Below are positions 6,466-46,302 of a stretch of DNA of 64,000 nucleotides, in pieces. The notes beneath the pieces are model-generated. The model saw only the letters and a list, made by a program, of their open reading frames with translations. It did not search any database and was not told the origin of the DNA. The DNA is from a virus (Duplodnaviria; Caudoviricetes): the IMG/VR virus record IMGVR_UViG_3300035498_000356, positions 1-64,000 of that record, one strand, 5' to 3'. Positions within the stretch are counted from its first letter, which is position 1, and every line of letters begins with the position of its first letter. Position numbers and translations under genes: made by a program.

Positions 6466-8028
6466 TTATTCGTAATAATAATATTTATCTTGTCTCATAG
6501 TTGCAATGAATGGAAGTAGTGACTTATTTTTATTTAATCTATCAGCAATTACAAAACTTTTTGTAATAGTGTAATAAGATTTATCTTCAAGTTCCTATTC
6601 ATTTGGATCATTTGATAATTCATTAGTTAAACAAAATTTTATAACCATTTTATCTTCACCCCTTAACTTAACTTTTTCGAAATCCAATAATGCAACTTCT
6701 TTATCTTTTAACTACGTAATAGATATGAATCTATCTTTACTTAATCCAAAATAGTATTCGGATTTATTAATGTCAGATATTTTGTTTAATTTCATTTTAC
6801 ATGTATTATTTTTCTTGTTAATAAATAAATTAAGTTTATCTCCCATTGTGCGTTGTAGTAAATGTCGCGCATTCGCATGGCTGCACCAACCATAGTACGA
6901 TGCCATCTGCTGCTTATACACCTTGTTCGGCACATTACCCTTGTGAAGCTGTCGTGCTCTGCGTTGCATGGCCAGCTTAATGCGCTTACGTAGTCGGATA
7001 TGAGTCGGATATATCACGTAGCCAAGAATATCCATGCCGCACGTTACGGGAGCGATTCTTTTATTAGGTTTCACTCGCAAATCATACTCAGCCAATAGAG
7101 CCTCAATCCTTGCAAGCATCTCATGTGCATCTTGCTTACACTTAACAATCACAGCCACATCATCCATATTGCGAGCGAAATCAATCACTCGCGCATCCGA
7201 CTCCAGCATTTTATCAAGCGGAGTTAGATAAAGATTACCATGAAACTGCGACATCGGCACACCTATCGGAATGCCACCACCGCTATAAGAGCCAACAAGA
7301 CGCTTTACAAACGCTCTTACTTCGGTGCAACTTATCACCTCATTAACAAGCTTTAGCAACAACTGCGGATTGATAGACTGATAATATTTCCTCACATCAA
7401 TCTGCAAATAATAGCACTCCTTATGCTGCTTTATCGACTTGGCTAAATGGTTAAGCATTTTCGTAGTTCCGCGCCCCTTTATGCTGCCATAAGTATGCTT
7501 GGAATAGTAGCCTGTATAAATCGGTGCAATGACGTTTAAAACGGCTGTTTCGGCCACATTATCCCACCAGTCGGCATGATAATGTATACTGCGCTCCTTC
7601 GGTTCATACACCTTCATCTCGGCATATTCGCCAAACTCCCAGCCATTGCGCAAACGCTCTGCGAAATGATTGGTGTCGCGCTCGCGATTCTCTAGGAAGT
7701 CACGATACTTAGCTTTCACGCGCTCTTTATGCTGCTCCGGTTCAATATAGCCGATAACCTTGTTAAATGCTAAGGTGATATTCTGTTCAGAGCATATTAA
7801 ATCCCATAATGCTCTGTTGAATTCTGCATCGGAGTATAAATCCGATGCACTCTGTGATGTTCTGCCGTTTTGGTTATTGTCGGCAAAGTCAATCGGGCGG
7901 AAGAGGGATTCATAGGGGGCAGCAACCCCGTTCACGTTGTTCGCATTGCCGACATTGTTCGCATTGTTCGCACGACCCACGCCAGCGAGAAGGGGAAGCC
8001 GCTTGCCCGATAAACTTTCTATACTCAT
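6466..8028 (-). CDS. DGR reverse transcriptase with N-terminal TR segment and an AT-rich, TAG-recoded C-terminal extension (520 aa)
   Basis: YEPKER, TYGSIKGRG, LQIDVRKYY, GIPIGVPMSQ (DGR SQ motif), RNMDD, DILGY; TAG at 6712 reads through to TAA at 6466. Confidence 0.9.
7914..7996 (-). repeat. DGR template repeat (TR), 83 bp
   Basis: AAC-rich (ANNANNVGNANNVN); differs from 9697-9779 at 8 positions, all adenines on the coding strand. Confidence 0.95.
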
Positions 8029-8264
8029 CTTATAATCTTACCTTGTTTCACCTCCTCAGCTGCCGTTGTAGCTGCTCCGCAGTATGGATAACCGGCCACA
8101 GCCAAGGACACTCCTTGTAAGTCAACTAACTCAGCGGTATGTTCCACAGCACGCGTGCAGCCTAGCGACACTCCCTCACCGAAATCAAGTATCGGAGTAT
8201 CCTCATGTACTGCACGTGTGCAGCCTAGCGAAACACCGCCACTAAATAGTACTCTCATAGCCAT
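8025..8264 (-). CDS. Small DGR-associated protein with three GVSL repeats (79 aa)
   Basis: GVSLGCTRAV twice plus GVSLAVAG; start and stop overlap the target stop and RT start. Confidence 0.6.
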   Translation of the reverse strand: MAMRVLFSGGVSLGCTRAVHEDTPILDFGEGVSLGCTRAVEHTAELVDLQGVSLAVAGYPYCGAATTAAEEVKQGKIIR

Positions 8265-10120
8265 TACGCGTTTTTAACCTCGATTTTAAGCTGTATGTAT
8301 CGCGCCTGTGCATTCGCCTTGATATACTTACCGCTGTAACCTCCGTTACCCGTTGACTGCCAAGCTAGGTAATTACCACTAGAGATAACATTACCATCGC
8401 TGTCAGTCTGACGGACTCCGGCAATCTTGCCCTCGAAGTAATCACCCCAGAATTGTGCCTGTACCCATGGCTGTGACGGAACGCGCGTATCATCGAAGAG
8501 CACAGCGATACGATACTCCGCATCATCGGCACACTCGAAAGTGTCTGTGTCGTTCTCAGCGATAAACGACTCATTCTGCACAATTGTGCGCCCTCGATAG
8601 GCGATAGGCTTGTTATATACGTTGATATACGTTCCTCCGGCTTGCAGCCCGTCAGATGCCTTAATATAGGCATAGGCTGTCGGACATGAACGAAGATAAA
8701 GGAAGTCTATCACGTTACCATCTAATATCTCGATAAGATAAGGTTCTTCATCGTCATTCGCCTTCACGAATTCTTGCCCGCTAGTCACCACAACGACTGT
8801 ATCTTTTGCCGCAAACTGGCCGCTTACGTAGATGCTGCCACCACGAATAAAGTAACGCCCTTCGGGTATTTCGTCAGTCAGTTCATAGCGTTCTCCTTCG
8901 GGATAGTCAGCTCCGGCTACGATACCATAATCCTCGAACATTGAGGCATACTGACTAAAGATACCCGATATTGCCACCTTGTCGGGATTGGTTACGAGCA
9001 CCTTGGAATATATCTGCCCCATGTCAGAGCCGCTCGCTTCGTTGAGTACTATGCTATCATTACTTACGGCTAGTAGTCCTACGGCTGTATGCTCATCCCA
9101 TGTAGCCGGAGTTGCGCTGCTGTCTGACTTCACGGGAATATGTATTGCCGGGGGTAATGCTCCCATGTAGGTGTTATCGGCTAGCATCAGGCGTTCATCG
9201 AGGTTGTCGTAGCGGAGTGACAAGTCGCCATTGTCGGGGTCGTTGAATACCTCGTATGACGTGCGGTCGGAGAAGACGCAATCCGTAAACTTTGTAAGAT
9301 TACTTGTATATCCTTTCTCTGATATATAATTCTCTATCCACGCTTGCTTTTCGGCAGATGTCTCGCCCTGCACATCAAGTTTGGTATCACCATCCCACCA
9401 CTCGCAGTCTGAACAGAAGTAGCAATTGATAAACGTGGCATTCTGTTGCAAGAGCATCGCCACCTTGCCAAGCACCCAATATGTCGCTTGAATACCCCAT
9501 GAGCCATTCTGAAATGCTACGCGCTTCTCTCTCGGTATATCATACACTGAGAAATTATATACTTTGCAGTTCGTATTTGACGCGAACCACAGCTTATAGC
9601 TATCATTACACTGAGGACGGCAGATGGAAACGAAACGCGCGGCGGTAGAGCCGCCTATGCCTCCCATGTACACTGCGCAATCTTTGAGTGCAACAGAGGG
9701 GGCAGCAACCCCGTCCACGGTGTACGCATTGCCGACACCGTGCGCAATGATCGCACGACCCACGCCAGCGAGAAGGGGATTACTGTTAGCACTGGTATTA
9801 GCAGTTCCTGCTACGCAATTGCGAAACATCATATTCTGTGACGCAAAACCATAGCACGTATACTCATTATTCCCATCAAACGTAGCTGCACCCCAATAAT
9901 CACCATTGATATTGGTTGAGTGCGTGCCATCCGCCATATCCTCGCAAAACGTACCGCGACAAATGATTGTGCCGGGATGATACGTTGTGTGACCCCTCCA
10001 AGCCTTGCCAAGCGTCTGATACGGATTCTGCATCGTGCCGTTACCAAACACATCGCTTCCCGTATTGCTATCCACATATACGTAGCCGCTATTCTGCGTG
10101 CGCCACTTATACGCCTTCAT
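8264..10120 (-). CDS. DGR target protein, putative receptor-binding protein with beta-helix-like N-terminus (618 aa)
   Basis: YVDSNTGSDVFGNGTMQNPYQTL motif typical of DUF1565/pectin-lyase-like N-termini; VR at about aa 114-141. Confidence 0.8.
   Translation of the reverse strand: MKAYKWRTQNSGYVYVDSNTGSDVFGNGTMQNPYQTLGKAWRGHTTYHPGTIICRGTFCEDMADGTHSTNINGDYWGAATFDGNNEYTCYGFASQNMMFRNCVAGTANTSANSNPLLAGVGRAIIAHGVGNAYTVDGVAAPSVALKDCAVYMGGIGGSTAARFVSICRPQCNDSYKLWFASNTNCKVYNFSVYDIPREKRVAFQNGSWGIQATYWVLGKVAMLLQQNATFINCYFCSDCEWWDGDTKLDVQGETSAEKQAWIENYISEKGYTSNLTKFTDCVFSDRTSYEVFNDPDNGDLSLRYDNLDERLMLADNTYMGALPPAIHIPVKSDSSATPATWDEHTAVGLLAVSNDSIVLNEASGSDMGQIYSKVLVTNPDKVAISGIFSQYASMFEDYGIVAGADYPEGERYELTDEIPEGRYFIRGGSIYVSGQFAAKDTVVVVTSGQEFVKANDDEEPYLIEILDGNVIDFLYLRSCPTAYAYIKASDGLQAGGTYINVYNKPIAYRGRTIVQNESFIAENDTDTFECADDAEYRIAVLFDDTRVPSQPWVQAQFWGDYFEGKIAGVRQTDSDGNVISSGNYLAWQSTGNGGYSGKYIKANAQARYIQLKIEVKNA
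9697..9779 (-). repeat. DGR variable repeat (VR), 83 bp
   Basis: PLLAGVGRAIIAHGVGNAYTVDGVAAP versus TR PLLAGVGRANNANNVGNANNVNGVAAP; A-specific substitutions. Confidence 0.95.
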
Positions 10121-10400
10121 TCGCTACCTCCTTTCCTTCGATAGTGATTACATCTCTCTTCTTCGCCCAGCTGCCATCATCGCGGATATACTCGCGAGTA
10201 ATAACCACCTTAGCAGTGTCTGTCTGATAGACAAACTCCACAGGGCGACCAAACTTGTCATTCTCGGTTACGGGGCATTCCTCGCCACCGATTTTCGACA
10301 TAAACTCATTGTAGAGCCAGTTCAGATATGCTTCCGACTGCTCCTCCTAATCTGGAAAATACATAATATTTCCATCTTCTCCATCTAATATTTTAATCAT
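10107..10400 (-). CDS. Small chimeric protein spanning the DGR right junction (97 aa, one TAG)
   Basis: ATG 10400 overlaps the upstream TGA; 18 AT-rich codons ending in TAG (10347), then GC-rich codons in frame with track ORF 10107-10301. Confidence 0.7.
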
Positions 10401-11031: not shown

Positions 11032-12246
11032 TCATTTAATATTAATAAAATCCTAAGGATCTTCAATTACAAGAATATCACCTCTATATTGAATTCGTGA
11101 TCCATCTCCACTAGAGTATCTATTATCATCTGCTGCAAATGAGAATATTCCTCCATCTAACATTGTACCATATCCACCGCATTTAATAATACTCCAATCA
11201 TCATATCCAACAGTAGCATAATCGTTATAAAAATAATTATAACTACCAGAACATTCAATAGGTATTAAATCTGCATATTCTCCGTATTTCATTCTAGAAA
11301 CACATCCATATTTATATATCTATTCCTAATCTTTTATAATTCCAAGTTTATCGTCAGTAACCATTCTGTATTTAACTGTTGGTATCTAAAATGGTTGTAC
11401 TCCATCATATATATAATATGTAATTACATTATCTTTGCAATAACTATTAATACCTCCAGTCCATTCCCAAATTGCTCCATATGGATCTTCAATACCAAAT
11501 ATATTTATATGATTTTCTGTAACACCATCTTGATTACCTAAGCTTTTAGTTTCACCACTTATAGCTGTTGCTGACTAATTGGTTTTAAATTTACTAAGTG
11601 CTTGTGGATTTTTAACATGATATTTAGTTAAAAACATGTATGCTATTTTGCATCTTGTTTCATAATCTATAATACTCCATCCATTCCCTATCTAAGAAGC
11701 TCCATAAGAAAAGTATTCCAATGTTCCAGTTTGCGGAACATTTCCATATTTACTATAAGCAACTTCTCCTTCACGATATGCTTTAGTTACTCCAACTAAT
11801 ACTCGTCTTGATTTATGCCCGATTTCATTAGATTGGCTGATGTGTAATTTAACCCAATCTTTTTCTCCTTGAACACAATCAATATTAAATTCTGGAAGAT
11901 CAACCATCCACTATCCCATGGAACCGTCTAATTTAGCTTCTGTGACCCCATCGTGGAATAGTTCTGAATTATTATCATCAAGATAACAAATTGCGACTTG
12001 ATTATTTCCATATTGTTTGGCTAAACATCTTCTTCCTTTAACCCATGAAATATCTTTCTCAATTACTGGAATTTCAGAATTTGCATTATTCCAATCATCA
12101 ATCAATAAAGTAGCATCACAGTGAGTAACAGGCTAATAAATTACTTCTTTAGTATCATCAATTGCAATTATGAAAGGCTCTTCTAAATTCTTAGTAGCTT
12201 CTAATACTTCGGATTTTGTATTTACTTTTGCTAAATGTTTTGACAT
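11032..12246 (-). CDS. C-type-lectin-fold (Mtd/FGE-like) receptor-binding protein (404 aa, TAG-recoded)
   Basis: Joins three track ORFs; FGIEDPYGAIWEW and C-terminal GG..GGIFSF..GSRIQYRG motifs typical of CLec-fold DGR targets. Confidence 0.75.
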
Positions 12247-15659: not shown

Positions 15660-16377
15660 AGCCACATCCTTTTTGTTTTATACTTTCAATATCTTTACAT
15701 AAGCCATTACACCCTTCAACTTCTTCTAGCAGTCTCTAAGCTTCATTAAGTTGATCTCTTTTAATGTAATAACCTAATACATTTATTGTCATCCATACAA
15801 CATCTCTTCTAAATGTTAAATCTTCTGAAGTAGATTTCTTACATTTCAAAAGACTAGATTCAAATAGAGATTGACAGAGTTTTACATAGCATGTCCAAAG
15901 ATTTGCCAACATAAACATATCTTGACATGATATAAAATAATTAGGATCACAATAGTCTAATGTAAATATTTCTGGACTTACATCATTCCACTTCTTTCCA
16001 TTAAATTGTTGAATAGTATCTGTATCTTCATTATATGCAAATATATCAGAAAACTATTCATAATAATTATTATCAAATTTGTTATTAATACAATTTAATG
16101 TTGGAACTATTACTTGATATATAGTATAAAATCCATCTATATTAAAGATATGATGTAATTCATCTAAGTAAGAACAATGGTCTACTATAAAAGTTTCTAT
16201 TGAATTCTAACTCGAATCTATTTTATTAGATTGGATTATATATACAGTAGCTGTATCTTTATATTTATATTCTCTATAAGGCTAACTAGTCGCATTTTCA
16301 TCCAGATATTCTTTATATGATGTTCCAGTTATTAAGCAACTATTACCTTTCTACTAAATTTTGAAATGTGGATTCAT
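15649..16377 (-). CDS. Cys-rich structural protein downstream of portal (242 aa, TAG-recoded)
   Basis: Extends track ORF 15736-15918; ends CNGLCK..GCGCGR. Confidence 0.7.
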
Positions 16378-18548
16378 GAGCCTAATTGTCTTACTTTATC
16401 ATTATATGGATTTCCATCTGCTAACTACTAATACTCAATATTAGTACGTCTTGCAGTTTCATCAGCCATTTTATTTTTATAAGTTCTATCTGTCTAAGCA
16501 TTAAACCAATCAACTTTAAACTCTAACTACATCTTCTGTTGTTCAAGTTGTATTTTAGATTCATTGAGTTGTTCAATTTTATTCTATGCTTTTTGTAATT
16601 CTGATTGTAACTATTTTAATTGCTAACTAGCTTCTTCGTATTGTTGAGCTAACTTCTATAACTAATCATTTTTCTTTTCTTGTTTCTTTAAAGAAGCAGA
16701 TGCTTTAGTTTTAATCTCAGTTAAACTCTTGGAAGTCATTATATCAAGAATAATATCAGGAGAAACTAATCCAGATTTTGTTAATTCCGGAATAAGCTAT
16801 CGAACATATTCCAAATCTTTAAGAATATCTGTACTAGTTAATATTCTTACATCATAGTCAGTTGTAGTAAAATATTCTGGCTAAGCTGTAAATATTTTCT
16901 AATACTTATCTCCTAAAATAATTGTTCCTGTTAATCCATTCTTATAAACTTTCTTAGCTATATTTAAGCAATCTACTAATAATTCATTTATTACTAAATC
17001 CATTTGATGATAATATTGTTTAGTAATTATGAATGAATTATTAACACCTTGTTTGATATTACTTACAGCATCTCTTTGTTCAATTCCATTTAAACGTTCT
17101 CTAAATACTCCAGTGATAGATGAAACCGTTTCTTCTATAGATTGAATTGCAATTTGAATAGCTTGAACGGCTTGTGCTTTTAATGTATCATCATATCCAT
17201 TAAATATGGTATTTAAACTAGCTTGTTGATTTTCTAGTCTACCTGGTTGAGAACTATCAATTAAAGCAACTCCTCCTTTTTTATAAGCTAAGAATTTCTA
17301 AAGACGTTCTGGAACATCATGTCCTAAAACTTGTGGTAGTAATGAAATATCTACAAAATCTCCAGTTGTTCCACTACTTGCAATTAATCTATCTCTATAG
17401 AAATGCAATATGTTATATCTATCTTGCAATGCAGCACAAGCAAGGACCATAGAATAAGGTCTATTACCTCTATTTAAGAAATATACTCCGTTTACCGTTA
17501 ATGCACAATAATTAGGATTATCCTTACTTCTTATTACTTCTTCATCCTTACCTCTTAATATATAAATATCTTCTCCAATTCTTACTGAAGAATATCGTTG
17601 CATTACTAAATCAGAATCAACCTCAATCCACTCCACTTCATATACAGGAATGTATCCAGAATTAGGTCCTAATTCTCTTCTAGAGAATCCTGGAATAACA
17701 GCTTCCTATCCAGCAAGTAATCCAGTTGAACCTTTTACCTATCCTTTCATATAATAGGCTCCATTATCTTGAATATGATCCCAATGCTCTTTAATTGTTT
17801 CTCTATCTTTAGAACTCATCTCCTTGCCATATTGACTAAGAATTTCTTCTTTTGTAAGATATGATCTTACTACAATTCTTTGCGAATCTTTTACATAAGG
17901 AGAATTAATATTATATTCAGGAAATACATCTCTTGGATCTAATACTCGCACTGATACGTTAGTTCCTCCAGAAGTAGGCTATACTTTATAATAGTTCTAT
18001 CCAGCGATAAGAGTATCAGTAACTAGCATTCTAGATACAGTTGACATATCTATTGCTCTTGATTGCATTAAATATTCTATAACATTCTGAGCTGCAATCT
18101 CATATTCAGATACAAAAGAATTATTTATATCTTCAACTAATTCCTATAATTCCTATTCTATTAAAGGATCTTTAGTATCTTTGCCATCTAAGAAACTAAG
18201 AATAGAATTATTTAAACTCTTAGTAAGATATTTATGCATTTCTGAAGTTATCTTTAACTGCTTTTCTCTTTCTATATTTGAAATAGTTTCAGAATCTTTA
18301 CATTGAACTTTAGGCAATATTGGAGTTCCTAAATATTCTCCTACCAAAGCATCAATGTGTTTACGAATTAAAGGAATAAATTCTATAGATGTTGGATTAC
18401 CCAATCCAAAATTCTCTTCAAGATATTTGTATTGATTGGCATCCATTAATCCATTATAATAATTATATGCTTTCTATAAATCTTCCTTTTCGTATACTAA
18501 TTCAGATATAGCTTTGTCAGTTTTATCGATCAGCACATCTTTCGTCAC
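16374..18548 (-). CDS. Portal protein (724 aa, TAG-recoded)
   Basis: Joins track ORFs 18153, 17739 and 17298; PLIRKHIDALVGEYLG, SITGVFRERLNGIEQRDAV; typical position after terminase. Confidence 0.85.
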
Positions 18549-18834
18549 AGCATTTTTTATTTATTGGTTGACATTGAGCTTTATATACTAAATCAATACT
18601 CCAATAATCATTTGATGAAAAGTGACGATTATGAAGTTCTTGACGTAAGAACTTGATTAAATCATCACCTTTCTATTCAGTATATATTATCAAAGGATAA
18701 TCATTATTATGCAATCCAAATTTAATTAAATATCCTTCTCCTTTTTGTTCAACCTTTAATTTACCAATATATTCAGCATTATATATATCCCTCATAAGCT
18801 CGAGGATCAGTACTTCTAAGTCCTTCGGTTCCAT
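18523..18834 (-). CDS. Hypothetical protein between terminase and portal (103 aa, one TAG)
   Basis: MEPKDLEVLILELMRDIYNAEYIGKLKV... Confidence 0.65.
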
Positions 18835-21163
18835 TATACCAAGTTATTTGAATATTCTGATTATCCTACTTTGGGATTCTACCATAATGTTTTACACCAT
18901 TAGAATCTGTATAATAACCAATATCTTGCCATGTTTCTTCTATCTCATTATTCGCCATTTTAGGTACCCTTCCCATTAACTCTTCATCTGCCAATAATGC
19001 CATACCTAAAGCGGCTACAATATCGAACTTTCTTTTATTAGCATCAGTATAATTATTTAATTCATCAAGCACATCATCAAACCAAATTTCATCACAATAA
19101 TCTGTAACGAAATCAGCTATTAAATCAGTCTAATGAGCAATTATAGCTGCTGTAGCTGGAGTTCCATATTGTTTATTAGTATTTCTGTATTGTTCTGCTA
19201 GTGTAGCTCTAGGTCTACGCATAAACCATTTAGACTATTTTATTGATTTTGCCCACGAAAAGAAACTCATACGAGTTGCTTCTATATTAATAGTAGCATT
19301 GTAATACTATGCTAATTTTAGTGAAATTTTATATGCTTCTCTTACATCTTCAGGTCTATCTTTATATACAGCAACAATCTATGGAATATCAGTTCCATAG
19401 ACTCTTTTATAAACTACACAACAGAAATCAGAAGGATCTTTTGTTGTTTCAGAAGTCTACTAACTACCTATATCAATACCATCGACTCCTATTACATAAA
19501 GATTATCAATCTTTTCACTAGGAGGACTCCATATTATTTTGCCATCTGAATCTCGTTTAGAACTAAGTTCCCATAATGGCTATTCTAATACTTGTAATTT
19601 ACTATTGACATTAGGTATCCACCTAAACCCATTAATATTAGATTCTGAATGCTACCCTTCTTTATAATTATATTCTAAATATCCTCTCTATATCTAAGGA
19701 CCTATTTTTAATGCTCTTATTTTTGTAAGTTGTTCTGTAATAAGTATCTTATTAAATTTATTAATATTTCCAGCAGAAAATGCTTCCGCATCAGTTAATG
19801 GATACTCTGCACAATAATTCATTAATGCTTCAGGAGTATTAACCATTAATGCTCTTTGCTCTTCTTGCCAAGCTTTTACATCATCATAATCTACATATCC
19901 TCTATGTGATAAAAACCTATCACGATCTTTAGGTATTTTAGTACATGGAATAAAATAAGAAGTTAATACATATTCTCCAGTCTAGCTATAATTGTGTCTA
20001 AATGGCAAAATACCATAAGCTATTGGGTTATAGAACATATCCTTTAATCCTTCAAGAGCTTCTTTGGTGTCACCGCTAGTTCCACCAACTAATCTTATTC
20101 CCCAAGATTTACCAGGTGGTCCAATAAGTGCTGTACTCTTAATATATTCTTTAGCCAATCCTTTAAAAGAACCAGCTTCCTCAAACACTAATAAATCTGC
20201 ACGATAACCACGAATCTTATTTGGCTTATCTGCAACAATTCCTATTATTTGAGATTTAAATCCGACTTCTACTTTAGCACCATCTACCATTTTATAAACT
20301 GATGCTTTCTTGTGATCTTGTTTATCTATAACCTAACTCAACTTAAAGAAACCTCCTTGAGTATGGTCATTTAAAAATGATAAACAGTTCCATGCTTTTG
20401 ATAATGTAGTTGCTAAATGTCCAGCATTATAAGCTGCAACAATATTAACAGAATTAGGTACAGAATTATACGAATTAACTGAAATGGCAGAAAGTATTTC
20501 AGACCAACCAACTTCACGAGATTTCATAATACAAGCATTTAATCGTAATTGTCTACATAATTCTATATAATGGAATAGTTCATACTACCCTGCATAGAAA
20601 GCTGGAAATATATAGTTACGGCCACTACCTGCTTTATCTTTAATATCCAGGTCTAGTAACTAGAAGTAATTTAAAAAGAAATAATTATCTCCAGTTATTC
20701 TATATCCATGGGATTCCATTCCATTTATACATCTATAATATTCCTAATCCCAAAATTGATTAAATGCCTTACTACCGTATCTATATTCTGTATATTTACC
20801 TGTTCTTAAAAATACCTATCTAGCTTCTGTAAACCAGTCTGGGTCAAAATCTAATCCTTTAGTTTTAGAAATAGGTTTATATCCAGTTAATTCATAAGAA
20901 CAATCTGCATCAAAATAAGTTATCTTACTATCAATAGGAAAATCCCAATCAGAAACTATTTGAATTTTCCGTTCAGGTTCTTTTTCAATTACTTCTTTTT
21001 TAGGAATCTATTCAACAATAGTTTCCTAAACAGTTTCTTTGGGATTTAACTTAATAGTTTCTGCTTTTTTCTATTTTTCTTTAACTTCCTAAACGGAATC
21101 TTTTATTATTTTAGGAAGTGCTAATTTATTAGATTTTCCTTTCTTTTTCTTAGTTTCCGCCAT
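18779..21163 (-). CDS. terL: Terminase large subunit (794 aa, TAG-recoded)
   Basis: KSREVGWSE (Walker A-like), LVFEEAG (Walker B), GGTSG, YVIGVDGID nuclease motif, FDIVAA; three track ORFs in one frame. Confidence 0.9.
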
Positions 21164-34578: not shown

Positions 34579-34579
34579 G

Positions 34580-34650
34580 TTCCCAAACCAGGATTCGAAC
34601 CCGGACTAAAGGATTTAGAGTCCCCTTTGCTACCATTACAACATTCGGGA
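34580..34650 (-). tRNA. Amber suppressor tRNA (anticodon CUA), Gln-like
   Basis: TCCCGAA/TTTGGGA acceptor with U1-A72, D-loop AATGGT, GGGGA-CT-CTA-AA-TCCTT anticodon arm, CCGGG-TTCGAAT-CCTGG T arm. Confidence 0.92.
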
Positions 34651-38926: not shown

Positions 38927-39157
38927 ATGACTATTTATAACATAACAACGGTAAATGCTAAAGGAGTACATACCAAATCATTTTTGACAGAGGAAGAAGC
39001 ACGCAAATATTTTAATACGCGTGTTTCTAACATATCTAGATGTGAAAATGTTGCAAAATTTGAAAAGGTATCTGAAAACCTTTTCAAATTTGAAGTAATG
39101 TATTATCCAAAAGATGAAGCAGTTAATTTTATGTCATTGACTGCATCTGAACTTTAA
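38927..39157 (+). CDS. Small hypothetical protein
   Basis: Track ORF trimmed to ATG 38927. Confidence 0.6.
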   Translation: MTIYNITTVNAKGVHTKSFLTEEEARKYFNTRVSNISRCENVAKFEKVSENLFKFEVMYYPKDEAVNFMSLTASEL

Positions 39158-39180
39158 AGACAGCCAGGAGTCTATAAAAT

Positions 39181-39229
39181 AATCTCTGATGAGACTGGAC
39201 GAAACACTATCTTATGATAGTGTCAGATT
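39181..39229 (+). ncRNA. Hammerhead ribozyme, type I with minimal stem II
   Basis: AAUCU-CUGAUGA-G ACUGGA C-GAA-ACACUAUC/GAUAGUGU-C^AGAUU; loop CUGG can pair with upstream CCAG; cleavage after C39224. Confidence 0.85.
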
Positions 39230-43383: not shown

Positions 43384-43455
43384 TCTCTTGTAGGATTAAA
43401 ATGGTAATCCGCTTAGTCATAAGAGATATGGGTTCGAATCCCATCAAGAGATCCA
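43384..43455 (+). ncRNA. tRNA-like RNA with shrunken anticodon loop
   Basis: Perfect acceptor TCTCTTG/CAAGAGA plus TCCA, D arm, T arm GGTTCGAATCC; anticodon arm only CTTA-GTCA-TAAG. Confidence 0.65.
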
Positions 43456-43566
43456 GTTCATGGCTGATTTGTTTAATTTATAAGTAGTTAGAAAGAGCCT
43501 TTCAATATAATAAAGGAGTTTTTAGATAAACTTAAATACATATAAGTATTTACTCTTTCTACTTTT

Positions 43567-43640
43567 ACTTCCGTAATTCAATGGATAGAATCTTTGACTT
43601 CTAATCAAATTATGGCAGTTCGAATCTGCCCGGAAGTACA
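43567..43640 (+). tRNA. tRNA-Arg (UCU)
   Basis: TTTGA-CT-TCT-AA-TCAAA; cloverleaf. Confidence 0.85.
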
Positions 43641-43850
43641 ATATTTCTATAAGAATGCACGCAGTAATTTTTGCTCAAAAATATAACGAAGGATTTAATT
43701 GCATTCTTTAACTTTTTTCATATGTAATTTTATAAGGATACTTACAGCAAAAATTATTATATTAAATTATTATTGTTTTTTTGTCATATTGCTTTTTCCA
43801 TTTATAAGTATCCTTATTTAGGTTATTAATTTAGTTAGTAACCTAAAACT

Positions 43851-43925
43851 GGGGTTAGTGATGTAAATTGGTTAGCATATCATCTTTGCAAGATGAAAGT
43901 TAGGGTTCGAATCCCTCTATCTCCA
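43851..43925 (+). tRNA. tRNA-Ala (UGC)
   Basis: TCATC-TT-TGC-AA-GATGA; G3:U70. Confidence 0.75.
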
Positions 43926-44043
43926 CAACGCTTTTGATAAAATCTGAATAATCATATTTCTGTGAAGAAATATATCAGATAAAAATTACGAGATTAATAT
44001 TTCATATGTATAAACTACTGGTCTGTGAAGATAGGTAGTTTTA

Positions 44044-44156
44044 TATCTAAGTAGTTTAATTGGTAAAACATTGGTTAAAAAGTTTTTAGTTTACGTTGGG
44101 TATTTTATGATTATGTTATTTAACCAATATGTCAGTTCGATTCTGACCTTAGGTGC
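44044..44156 (+). ncRNA. tRNA-like RNA with a 39-nt U-rich loop replacing the anticodon loop
   Basis: Acceptor, D and T arms intact; 10-bp stem ATTGGTTAAA/TTTAACCAAT encloses 44080-44118. Confidence 0.7.
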
Positions 44157-44330
44157 AATTAGAATAATATTCTTATCTTTGCAACTAATAAAAAATAAAG
44201 ATTTACCTCCTTTCTGTATTTAAGTTAATAATTAGAAGTCTTTTAAACTTCTGGAATATTATTCTTGTCTTTATATAATTAGTATGCAAGATAAAACTAA
44301 GTAGCTGTCTGTGAAGATAGCTACTTATCT

Positions 44331-44398
44331 ATCTCTATAGTTCAATGGTAGAACAATAGTTTTTACTAGAAATGATAGTTCGAATCTATCTAGAGACA
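44331..44398 (+). ncRNA. tRNA-like RNA with truncated anticodon arm
   Basis: TAGTTCAATGGTAGAAC D arm, GATAG-TTCGAAT-CTATC T arm; anticodon arm only TAGT-TTTT-ACTA. Confidence 0.6.
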
Positions 44399-44466
44399 CT
44401 ACTGAGTTTTTCATGATGTTTAGGTTAGATGCAAAAGCTACAGTTCGTGAGAATAGTAGCTTATAC

Positions 44467-44553
44467 ACTCCATTAACTCAATGGTAAGAGTCGGATCCTT
44501 ATAAGATCAAAGCCCTAGCAAGGTATAACCTGGGTCAGTACCAGGATGGAGTA
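44467..44553 (+). tRNA. tRNA with UAU anticodon (Ile?), long variable arm, atypical T-loop
   Basis: ACTCCAT/ATGGAGT; GATC-CT-TAT-AA-GATC; CCTGG-GTCAGTA-CCAGG. Confidence 0.6.
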
Positions 44554-44572
44554 CTAAAATTTTAAATTGATT

Positions 44573-44836
44573 ATGACTTTCAGAGAATTAGAATTCAATC
44601 CACATCGAGTGGACCCTACTGCCATACAAGCTAGAGCATATTTCCCTAATGGATATGAATTATCAATAATAGGAGGTGATAGTTTCTATGGAAATGGAAA
44701 AGATACATTTGAAGTAGCAATACTTAAAAATGGTCAACTATGTTATGATTCTCCACTCACAGATGATGTTTTAAAGTTTCAAACTCCTGAAGATATTGAT
44801 AATATTCTTCAAGAAGTAGAATCTTATCTTCCATAA
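44573..44836 (+). CDS. Hypothetical protein
   Basis: FPNGYELSII...YG...FEVAIL..YDSPLTDDV motif common in phages. Confidence 0.75.
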   Translation: MTFRELEFNPHRVDPTAIQARAYFPNGYELSIIGGDSFYGNGKDTFEVAILKNGQLCYDSPLTDDVLKFQTPEDIDNILQEVESYLP

Positions 44837-44846
44837 TGTTAGTAAA

Positions 44847-44919
44847 GATTTAGGTAGTTTAATGGTTAGAACGCTTAATCGCATTTAAGAGATAGAAGTT
44901 CGAATCTTCTTCTAAATCC
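44847..44919 (+). ncRNA. tRNA-like RNA with 6-nt anticodon loop (Cys-like GCA)
   Basis: CTTAA-TCGCAT-TTAAG; D and T arms present. Confidence 0.55.
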
Positions 44920-44995
44920 TATTTTTGTCATTTTTATAATTGGTTTTAATGGTTGGGTCTTTATAGTTTTCTTCCTTTAAAGAAAGCTATTGTTT

Positions 44996-45066
44996 TGGAA
45001 TATGGTGTAATGGTAGCACTACAGATTTTGATTCTGTCTGCCAAGGTTCGAATCCTTGTATTCCAA
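44996..45066 (+). tRNA. tRNA-Gln (UUG)
   Basis: TGGAATA/TATTCCA; ACAGA-TT-TTG-AT-TCTGT. Confidence 0.9.
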
Positions 45067-45084
45067 CTAAAAATATTTAAAGAT

Positions 45085-45279
45085 ATGGTAAAGTACATAC
45101 TTAAACAAGGCAATGCGGCATTTGTTAGATTGTCAACTAATGATGAGTATGTTATTACTCCTGTAGTTGATAATGCTACTTTATTTGACTATGTTGGAGA
45201 TGCAATGAAAGTTGCAGTATCCATCAATGATAGACTTAGATCTAATATTACACGATTTATTTCAATGAACGTCAAATAA
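45085..45279 (+). CDS. Small hypothetical protein
   Basis: Track ORF 44953 trimmed to the ATG after tRNA-Gln. Confidence 0.6.
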   Translation: MVKYILKQGNAAFVRLSTNDEYVITPVVDNATLFDYVGDAMKVAVSINDRLRSNITRFISMNVK

Positions 45280-45441
45280 AAAATTTCTCAGCTCACACCT
45301 ATTGCTACAATGGTCGTTGACTTTTATAAAAGGGTTTTCAACAAGATAAATCTTTTTCAGGTAGGAACATACTGAATAATTGTTTCAGAGAAATTTATTT
45401 AAGATAGTTTGAGAGTTCTACTTAAATAAATTTCTCACAAT

Positions 45442-45514
45442 GCTCTCTTCTTCTAAGTGGTTAGGAATCCAGATTTTCATTCTGGCAATTCGGGTTCGAA
45501 TCCCGGAGAGAGTG
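45442..45514 (+). tRNA. tRNA-Glu (UUC)
   Basis: CCAGA-TT-TTC-AT-TCTGG; cloverleaf. Confidence 0.88.
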
Positions 45515-45755
45515 CAAAATATTCAAATGTTTTATAGCTTCGCAGGTAAAGACAGAACAGCCTTGCCTATTCAATAATATAATTTGATTCGCGGTAGTAT
45601 AATTATTGAGAATAGCATTGATAGAAACGTCTATGTGCACAAAATATATCTATCAGGAATTTGTAATTACAAATGGCAGTAAGGCTATAAAACTTTATGA
45701 ATATGTAGGTCCATGCCCGATAACACTAGGAGTACCTGTAAAAGTATGGATATTC

Positions 45756-45828
45756 GTGCGTATTAGCTTAAATGGAAAGCGCCTCTTTCAGTAGGTATTT
45801 ATGCTGGTTCGAGTCCAGTCTACGCACC
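45756..45828 (+). ncRNA. tRNA-like RNA with 8-nt anticodon loop (CUUUCAGU)
   Basis: GTGCGTA/TACGCAC, D arm, GCTGG-TTCGAGT-CCAGT; anticodon ambiguous (UUC or UCA). Confidence 0.55.
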
Positions 45829-45836
45829 TAATATAT

Positions 45837-45909
45837 CGGAATGTATTTCAGTAGGTAGAATTCTTCATTTGGGATGAAGAGGTCGCACGTTCGAGTCGTG
45901 TCATTCCGA
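45837..45909 (+). tRNA. tRNA-Pro (UGG)
   Basis: CGGAATG/CATTCCG; CTTCA-TT-TGG-GA-TGAAG. Confidence 0.88.
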
Positions 45910-46200
45910 CTTATTTATTTAAAAAGATTACAGACTTTTTTCTAATATAGTTTTTTATTTTATTTAATTTCATTTTGTATGTCAACTTGAGGAATTAGTT
46001 TTAAACTAAGATGGGCAAAATACTGAATTAACAGTTGAAAGATTCTGTAGCTGTCAGGTGTAATTGGAATCAAATTAGGGTATGCTAAGACAGGCATTAT
46101 AGGAAGTTAATCTATTGTAAAAGGTGTGATTCCTTTGGGAATTAGTATGAATTACTAATTACTTTAAATTCTTTAGATTGAGTAAAGTTGACATATTTTT

Positions 46201-46286
46201 AGAGGATAAACCTTTTAGGAAAAGGAATTGTTTGCTAAACAAATTGTGCAATATTATTGCATATGGTTCGAGTCCATTGTCCTCTA
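46201..46286 (+). tRNA. tRNA-Ser (GCU)
   Basis: TTGT-TT-GCT-AA-ACAA; long variable arm. Confidence 0.75.
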
Positions 46287-46302
46287 CTAATTTTTAATAA
46301 TT

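Follow-up and report, generated by a model that had tools for sequence, protein, structure and literature searches.

A 64,000-nucleotide stretch of a Caudoviricetes genome (hereafter the window; positions 1 to 64,000 of IMG/VR record IMGVR_UViG_3300035498_000356) carries on its minus strand what is very probably a functional diversity-generating retroelement (DGR) that rewrites a patch inside the predicted N-terminal beta-helix domain of a tail-module protein. The cassette comprises a 618-amino-acid (aa) target gene, P0001 (8264-10120), a small 79-aa open reading frame (ORF), and a 438-aa reverse transcriptase (RT) gene (6712-8028); the RT gene contains a template repeat (TR) and the target gene the matching variable repeat (VR). 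The fold of C-type lectins (C-Lec) has been treated since 2005 as the evolutionary solution for variation on the scale generated by DGRs, and to our knowledge all DGR targets described structurally so far have that fold. Our interpretation is carried by the anatomy of the cassette, the adenine specificity of its TR/VR differences, hypervariation in natural populations, recurrence of the same arrangement across a family of target genes, and the predicted fold of the VR-bearing domain.

A repeat search of the window identified an 86-nt direct repeat with 90% identity between its copies: the TR (7911-7996), which sits in frame in the 5′-terminal part of the RT ORF, and the VR (9694-9779), which codon mapping places at target aa 114-142. 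Read on the minus strand, which is the coding strand, all nine mismatches between the copies fall at TR adenines; with 17 adenines in the 86-nt TR, the hypergeometric chance of adenine-only mismatches is 5.3e-8. Sixteen of the 17 adenines supply both A's (positions 1 and 2) of each of eight AAY codons, and the eight diversified codons of the target (124, 125, 127, 128, 131, 133, 134 and 136; 9713-9751) are interleaved with the fixed residues A126, V129, G130, A132 and V135, four of which (A126, V129, A132 and V135) stand at every third position. The 3′ end of the VR is GC-rich (GGGGTTGCTGCCCCC). A first-pass annotation of this DNA had described an 83-bp pair with eight differences, all at TR adenines, and a VR at about aa 114-141 of a 618-aa protein; this is the same 86-nt repeat minus its last mismatch at 9696, and the TR peptide given there agrees with our translation (ANNANNVGNANNVN), so that the observation of a mutagenic TR/VR pair is confirmed. 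A whole-genome search found one TR, one VR and one target, and no second copy of any of them.

Variation among close relatives of the target was analyzed in four clusters at 90% identity (10, 335, 155 and 89 members), consisting of assembled proteins from different samples and not of reads. Positions with at least three residue types concentrate at the AAY codons in all four clusters, with at most a few scattered others. Among the five relatives that are at least 97% identical in the window's own cluster, such positions are 124, 125, 127, 128, 133, 134 and 136, with a single outlier at 183, while position 131 has two residue types. Across 43 distinct VR haplotypes, every residue at the variable positions (275/275) belongs to the 15-residue NNY alphabet that AAY codons yield when their adenines are changed, and tyrosine accounts for 19% of them, a three-fold enrichment. 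Judged from these proteins, diversification is ongoing in natural populations; the adenine-specific variation that the first-pass annotation had proposed to look for in the VR is present, with clusters of assembled proteins standing in for read mapping.

The VR lies in an N-terminal domain (aa 1 to ~323; 9152-10120, minus strand) that AlphaFold2 models and comparisons with VIA, ESM Atlas and BFVD predict to be a right-handed parallel beta-helix with a DUF1565-like cap, a scaffold that is neither a lectin nor an immunoglobulin-like (Ig) fold. The AlphaFold2 model of the full-length protein, built from 39 sequences, had a predicted local distance difference test (pLDDT) score of 89.5 and a predicted template modelling (pTM) score of 0.89, with a pLDDT of 62-67 in the VR. 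The model of the N-terminal 332 residues, built from 69 diverse sequences, reached 94.2 and 0.92, with 92, 84 and 80 in the VR blocks, and both models have the same secondary structure. In a VIA comparison with 48,161 PDB chains, all 50 listed matches were right-handed beta-helices or beta-solenoids, led by Pel9A (1ru4; Z 12.1, 237 residues aligned, root-mean-square deviation 3.8), rhamnogalacturonan lyase (Z 11.7) and BT_1002 (Z 11.4), and including PL6 alginate lyases, pectin methylesterases and, at Z 8-9.4, many phage tailspikes or fibres. Foldseek searches of the PDB gave weak E-values and matches that were almost without exception beta-helices and related solenoids, annotated BFVD matches include phage “parallel beta-helix”, “DUF1565” and tailspike proteins, and the ESM Atlas neighbours (template modelling (TM) score 0.55-0.65 over 250-285 residues) belong to clusters with DUF1565, Beta_helix, NosD and Pel9A-like_beta_helix. 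No lectin or Ig fold occurs among the listed structural matches, and superposition of the predicted structure as a beta-helix accounts for residues 5-323, most of the domain; a fold's absence from a list of matches is not by itself enough to exclude it.

At the sequence level, the domain begins with a cap motif, YVDxxxGxDxxGxGTxxxPYxT, that gives weak matches to the tail protein family phrog_4577 (1.6e-3) and to the tail fibre or tailspike chains 9rkv and 8fqc (E 0.05-0.065). The VR falls between two copies of a rung marker, h-x-h-x-[ND]-C-x-h (FRNC at 98-102 and LKDC at 145-148), and the models render it as an ordered coil containing turns of three residues and isolated beta-bridges, which makes a 40-residue non-beta segment between the markers. 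This segment may be a rung of irregular shape or may elaborate the T3-PB1-T1 side, and its variable residues may face the groove that usually binds sugar. The suggestion in the first-pass annotation that the DGR diversifies a different scaffold, possibly the rungs of a beta-helix, therefore holds in part: both AlphaFold2 models, VIA and ESM Atlas point to a non-lectin, non-Ig beta-helix, and the AlphaFold and Foldseek check it had suggested for a standard C-Lec or Ig fold returned beta-helices instead, while the models give coil, turns and isolated bridges in place of regular rungs.

It could be argued that the VR region is a divergent C-type lectin-like domain, or another known DGR fold, that AlphaFold2 has mis-modelled. 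The largest survey of DGRs expects unannotated VR domains to be probably new C-Lec variants (Roux et al. 2021, PMC8144416), earlier “Ig” VR classes became C-Lec once good models existed (the tentaclins, PMC10743442), and the VR pLDDT in our first model was low. We nevertheless consider such an error very improbable. The two models agree on the same beta-helix, with a pLDDT above 90 on both flanks of the VR and of 80-92 within it under the deeper alignment, and with 237 of 332 residues superposed on Pel9A, a lectin domain of at least 100 aa could not be accommodated. In addition, recurrent rung motifs flank the VR (N101-C102 and D147-C148), the target begins with the DUF1565-like cap motif, and P0001 has no lectin-type Pfam signature (FGE-sulfatase, DUF1566/Lcl_C or DUF6273) at E up to 1.

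The beta-helix target with an internal VR is not confined to this phage. We identified at least 43 full-length relatives of the target at 33-98% identity, none of them annotated, and a profile search of 1.84 billion representatives returned 87 proteins at E<1e-30; about 55 of these stand for full-length clusters at 50% identity. Their alignment has a single hypervariable block at a fixed position, LLAGVGRA-xx-A-xx-VG-x-A-xx-V-x-GVAGS, and almost all complete target genes have an RT no more than about 0.5 kb away (contigs for P0020, P0032 and P0044 and 19 IMG/VR loci). A TR/VR pair at aa ~108-149 was found in at least 15 other target genes, from 13 further non-redundant phage or prophage loci that each carry an RT (near-duplicate contigs L005, L007 and L014 were left out of this count). 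Mismatches at adenine sites in the other loci were 7/7, 10/10, 13/13, 14/14, 9/9, 11/11, 12/13, 18/19, 12/12, 13/13, 14/14 and 9/9; TR/VR differences at TR adenines, here and in 15 related target genes, identify these systems as DGRs. In contig L006, two paralogous targets, P0045 (1576-3504) and P0044 (4496-6376), share one TR (6600-6677) and one RT, and a similar small ORF precedes each of them. Decay was also seen: L013 retains a 29-nt TR remnant and no RT, and three distant relatives (~26% identity) have neither TR nor RT. In the full-length members P0111, P0115, P0124, P0125 and P0144, the LAGVGRA...GVAGS block is missing, or is shortened and degenerate, and these proteins may represent the scaffold in a non-diversified form. 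Searches of GenBank phages by blastn and tblastn gave no relative of the cassette or the target.

On the basis of its profile matches (RVT_1, 3e-16; phrog_1423, 7e-73) and its GxxxSQ motif (IGVPMSQ), the RT that adjoins the TR and VR is of the DGR type. Its reading frame is intact, and none of the eight AAY codons has been lost from the TR. With TAG translated as Q, the ORF reaches 520 aa (to 6466), adding 82 aa from low-GC DNA (6466-6714) that holds two TAG codons, and production of the full-length RT may depend on a phage suppressor tRNA. Downstream of the ATG at 8028, the only further in-frame ATG, GTG or TTG codons before the RT core are those inside the TR (7911-8028, minus strand); with the ATG at 8028 as the start, a copy of the unmutated VR peptide would therefore form the N-terminus of the RT. 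The catalytic motif is NMDD (RNMDD, region 7130-7145) instead of YMDD, a feature shared by the clade of the window, L008, L009 and L010; the other ten aligned RTs of the family have YMDD, except L019, which has FTDD.

Since the VR is internal, the signals for retrohoming must lie in coding DNA, and the candidate for such a cis-acting element is the inverted repeat GGCGG-CTCTA-CCGCC, which is GC-rich and located about 40 nt downstream, at codons 156-160 (9641-9655, minus strand). It begins 38 nt past the end of the TR/VR homology (codon 142) in the window and 38-44 nt past it across the family, and GGCGG-N5-CCGCC is carried by 11 of the 16 family targets scanned, or 12 of 17 counting L013. Without exception, carriers in the 16-gene codon table use the codons GGC GGC NNN (A/T)CC GCC, at about 40% protein identity; two of them have Ser (TCC) for Thr (ACC) with the CC kept, and other conserved Gly columns have GGC in just 12-56% of sequences. 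This invariance at synonymous sites despite ~40% protein identity indicates selection on the inverted repeat at the nucleotide level. By analogy, it is plausibly the counterpart of the hairpin/cruciform that phage BPP-1 needs downstream of its VR (PMC3240598).

A number of points weigh against our interpretation. The fold of the VR domain is predicted and not solved. At the level of sequence, Pfam, NCBIfam and the PDB yielded no match supporting a beta-helix for the target, and among the Pfam beta-helix families PF07602, PF13229, PF12708 and PF22842 there was none at E up to 1; the DUF1565/pectin-lyase-like start noted by the first-pass annotation agrees with the cap motif and the structural clusters carrying DUF1565. 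Exposure of the eight variable residues on the surface is suggested by the sequence pattern and by DSSP strings, and the ligand, for which the first-pass annotation had put forward capsule polysaccharide, and any enzymatic activity of the target are putative. With its 5-bp stem, 5-nt non-GRNA loop and distance of 38-44 nt, the inverted repeat is outside the consensus of phage DGR hairpins (stem of 7-10 bp, GRNA loop, 4-34 bp from the VR; PMC3240598); it is missing from five of the 16-17 targets analyzed, and it shows no covariation and leaves some room for protein-plus-codon constraint. Finally, a search of the 155-kb genome gave no match to avd (PF05635) at E up to 1, and the avd position is occupied by a single ORF, that of the 79-aa three-repeat protein; because an Avd homolog is missing and NMDD replaces YMDD, the activity of this copy is judged from that of its relatives.

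The missing Avd and the NMDD motif would also suit a cassette that is a recently imported relic, no longer diversifying, with TR/VR differences that arose in a donor lineage. The cassette also stands out from its TAG-recoded genome as an island of different composition that has no TAG codons, and decay is known within the family from L013. This explanation appears unlikely to us in view of the intact RT ORF and the eight AAY codons kept in the TR, and of the five sequences, at least 97% identical and from different samples, that have different VRs, with three or more residue types at AAY codons. Furthermore, TR/VR differences in the NMDD clade are all at adenines (window, 9/9; L008, 13/13; L009, 14/14; L010, 9/9), and avd is not universal among DGRs, most of those in zeta crAss-like phages being reported without it (PMC12386605).

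The island itself covers the whole cassette (6800-10340), with about 45-55% GC (~49%) against ~29% around it in composition profiles. The target gene (~49% GC) has no in-frame TAG codon and the RT core none either, versus 2-21 TAG codons in each of the neighbouring late genes. The junctions of the island fall inside a small upstream ORF (TAG at ~10347) and inside the C-terminus of the RT. A cassette with 97% identity was found in contig L008, which has 37% GC, and L013 has a similar GC island with its decayed DGR. Taken together, the GC island, the lack of TAG codons, the 97%-identical cassette in a 37% GC contig and the island of L013 point to recent lateral transfer, and the cassette reads as a recently imported plug-in module. 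It behaves as a portable module that passes between phages with GC contents from 29% to above 55%, including into a genome with a recoded stop codon.

With the functional DGR as the preferred reading, we propose the following course of events, in which retrohoming is modelled on phage BPP-1 by homology. Errors specific to adenines would arise as the RT copies the TR transcript, and the VR in the adjacent tail-module gene would then be overwritten by the mutated cDNA. The variable residues form pairs split by the fixed small residues A, V and G, which probably pack against the body of the helix, and up to ~15^8 (2.6e9) versions of one surface patch could be produced in this way. The patch would most likely tune binding to a ligand on the host surface, and the target is probably anchored to the tail through its conserved C-terminal 290 residues. 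For the C-terminal half (aa 330-618), a feature search of ESM Atlas was uninformative, and a phi812 baseplate chain was discarded as a lead (Z 7.9 over 100 aa, too weak to use).

Phage tailspikes are components of the virion tail that bind or cleave glycans on the host surface, usually as trimers. The extent of the target gene is supported by the ORF list with its translation, by homologs of similar length and by the family alignment, in which a conserved N-terminus backs the start codon. A tail protein (phrog_5302; 11032-12246) is encoded near it in the window, a tape measure and a Collar/Gp10_C gene occur in L003, and target genes are placed in tail modules of several unrelated phages. The target might instead be an enzyme, such as a polysaccharide depolymerase or esterase with a diversified substrate groove, or a non-virion protein, rather than a receptor-binding adhesin. 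Its nearest folds are indeed polysaccharide lyases, pectin methylesterases and depolymerising tailspikes, the family alignment has invariant acidic residues in the helix (E60, D74, D82, D238 and D299), and it lacks the N-terminal virion-anchor domain of typical tailspikes. We regard this as the less likely function, since no catalytic motif could be assigned, there is no family match at the sequence level and function cannot be deduced from a shared fold; the position in tail modules of unrelated phages and the enrichment of tyrosine at variable sites, which resembles binding surfaces, also speak for an adhesin. The two possibilities overlap, as a depolymerising tailspike is also a receptor-binding protein.

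The 79-aa ORF (8025-8264, minus strand), whose start overlaps the stop codon of the target, consists of three tandem phi-S-phi-G repeats (GVSLGCTRAV twice, then GVSLAVAGYP). Comparable three-repeat ORFs of 60-100 aa follow the target stop codon in 11 other loci (L003, L004, L006, L009, L010, L011 and L015-L019). The small ORF travels with the target and not with the RT, because it follows the target even in loci where the RT and TR are upstream of the target, and a role as partner or chaperone of the target seems to fit it better than one as a substitute for Avd. We rejected the possibility that the repeats at 8025-8264 are hairpins of the DGR RNA: other loci keep the three-fold phi-S-phi-G peptide motif with unrelated DNA. 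A word-based search for homologs of the 79-aa ORF returned only itself.

The source record is 155,354 bp long, has direct terminal repeats and is rated complete; the window is its first 64 kb, with a GC content of about 29%. The genome is TAG-recoded, its reading frames being open only when TAG is read as sense, and it encodes a suppressor tRNA with anticodon CUA (34579-34650, minus strand). A capsid-like gene (45-1472), the portal (16374-18548) and TerL (18779-21163) are in the same window. TerL is 44-47% identical to those of human-faecal phages and ~30% identical to those of crAss-like phages, and the phage that carries the DGR is crAss-related, TAG-recoded and gut-type. Elsewhere in the window we noted an array of about 12 tRNA genes, with odd-anticodon calls among them (43384-46287, plus strand), and a RAGATH-1 hammerhead ribozyme (39157-39229, plus strand; 78 bits).

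Published classifications place most VRs at the C-terminus of the target, with internal VRs mainly in “Ig” classes (Wu et al. 2018). The larger survey of Roux et al. 2021 (PMC8144416) describes VR domains with an annotation as systematically C-Lec and located at the C-terminus, a placement that it explains partly by the need for unconstrained non-coding cis elements, and it re-assigned the “Ig” classes of Wu et al. to PC_00003 and PC_00008. The former “Ig1/Ig2” classes with N-terminal VRs were later shown to be C-Lec tentaclins (PMC10743442), and C-Lec is also the fold of the targets that DGRs diversify in zeta and epsilon crAss-like phages. We considered the internal-VR class “Ig2” of Wu et al. 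2018 as a home for the family described here and set it aside as probably wrong; those targets belong to PC_00003, PC_00008 and PC_00062 and are of the tentaclin type (C-Lec plus Ig). The supplement of Roux et al. 2021, in contrast, lists RT clusters with the target “Rare: PC_00083” from the same metagenomes as L011, L014, L015, L018 and L023. Its PC_00083 entries have hosts in the FCB group (Bacteroidota), one lists a VR position of 0.2 versus at least 0.9 for the others shown, and the gene numbers 12 and 14 fit the order target, small ORF, RT. Based on sample identifiers and layout and not on sequences, the beta-helix family is very probably PC_00083. Upon the classification against published target classes that the first-pass annotation had suggested, the target class thus turned out to be very probably listed already (PMC8144416), where it was detected automatically and set aside as rare, with no analysis and no fold assigned. 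Literature searches yielded no description of a beta-helix, pectin lyase, solenoid or tailspike protein as a DGR target.

Compared with C-Lec DGR proteins (Bordetella phage BPP-1 Mtd, Treponema TvpA, Thermus TaqVP and the targets of zeta and epsilon crAss-like phages), the present system has the same adenine-specific TR/VR pair, an RT of the GxxxSQ type and AAY codons that alternate with fixed scaffold residues, in a phage tail-module protein with a presumed role in host recognition. It differs in a VR at 20% of the target length instead of the C-terminus (aa ~108-149 throughout the family), in a VR domain predicted to be a beta-helix, in a short VR with eight variable codons, and in having no avd and cis signals that must be coding. 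Like the tentaclins (PMC10743442), the target is a phage protein with an N-proximal VR and a long conserved C-terminal part that is likely for virion attachment; unlike them, it has no DUF6273 or Ig match and a predicted beta-helix, whereas the tentaclin VR is a beta-hairpin on a C-Lec/DUF6273-like domain that precedes Ig-like domains. With tailspikes and DUF1565 or Pel9A-like proteins (Pel9A 1ru4, PL6 lyases, the CBA120 tailspikes and Klebsiella Kp9 gp42), it has in common the predicted fold over aa ~5-323 (VIA Z 8-12; ESM Atlas TM 0.55-0.65), the cap motif and the tail-module setting, yet it has no membership in their sequence families, no N-terminal anchor domain, and a 40-residue non-beta VR segment. 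None of the tailspike or beta-helix proteins matched here has been described as a DGR target.

In the broadest form of our interpretation, the beta-helix is a second natural scaffold for DGRs, its eight variable residues line a tailspike-like ligand-binding face, and the system works without Avd and with retrohoming signals embedded in coding sequence; we judge the chances of this combination to be evenly balanced. If it is correct, a fold other than C-Lec would tolerate about 1e9 variants and retrohoming signals could coexist with coding constraints, which would contradict the view of VRs as necessarily C-terminal and C-Lec. The compact arrangement, with eight codons and no avd, would offer a scaffold for DGR-based continuous evolution of beta-helix binders. 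For the phages themselves, it would mean that glycan-recognition domains of the tailspike type are tunable by DGRs, with a bearing on the host range of phages that infect Bacteroidota.

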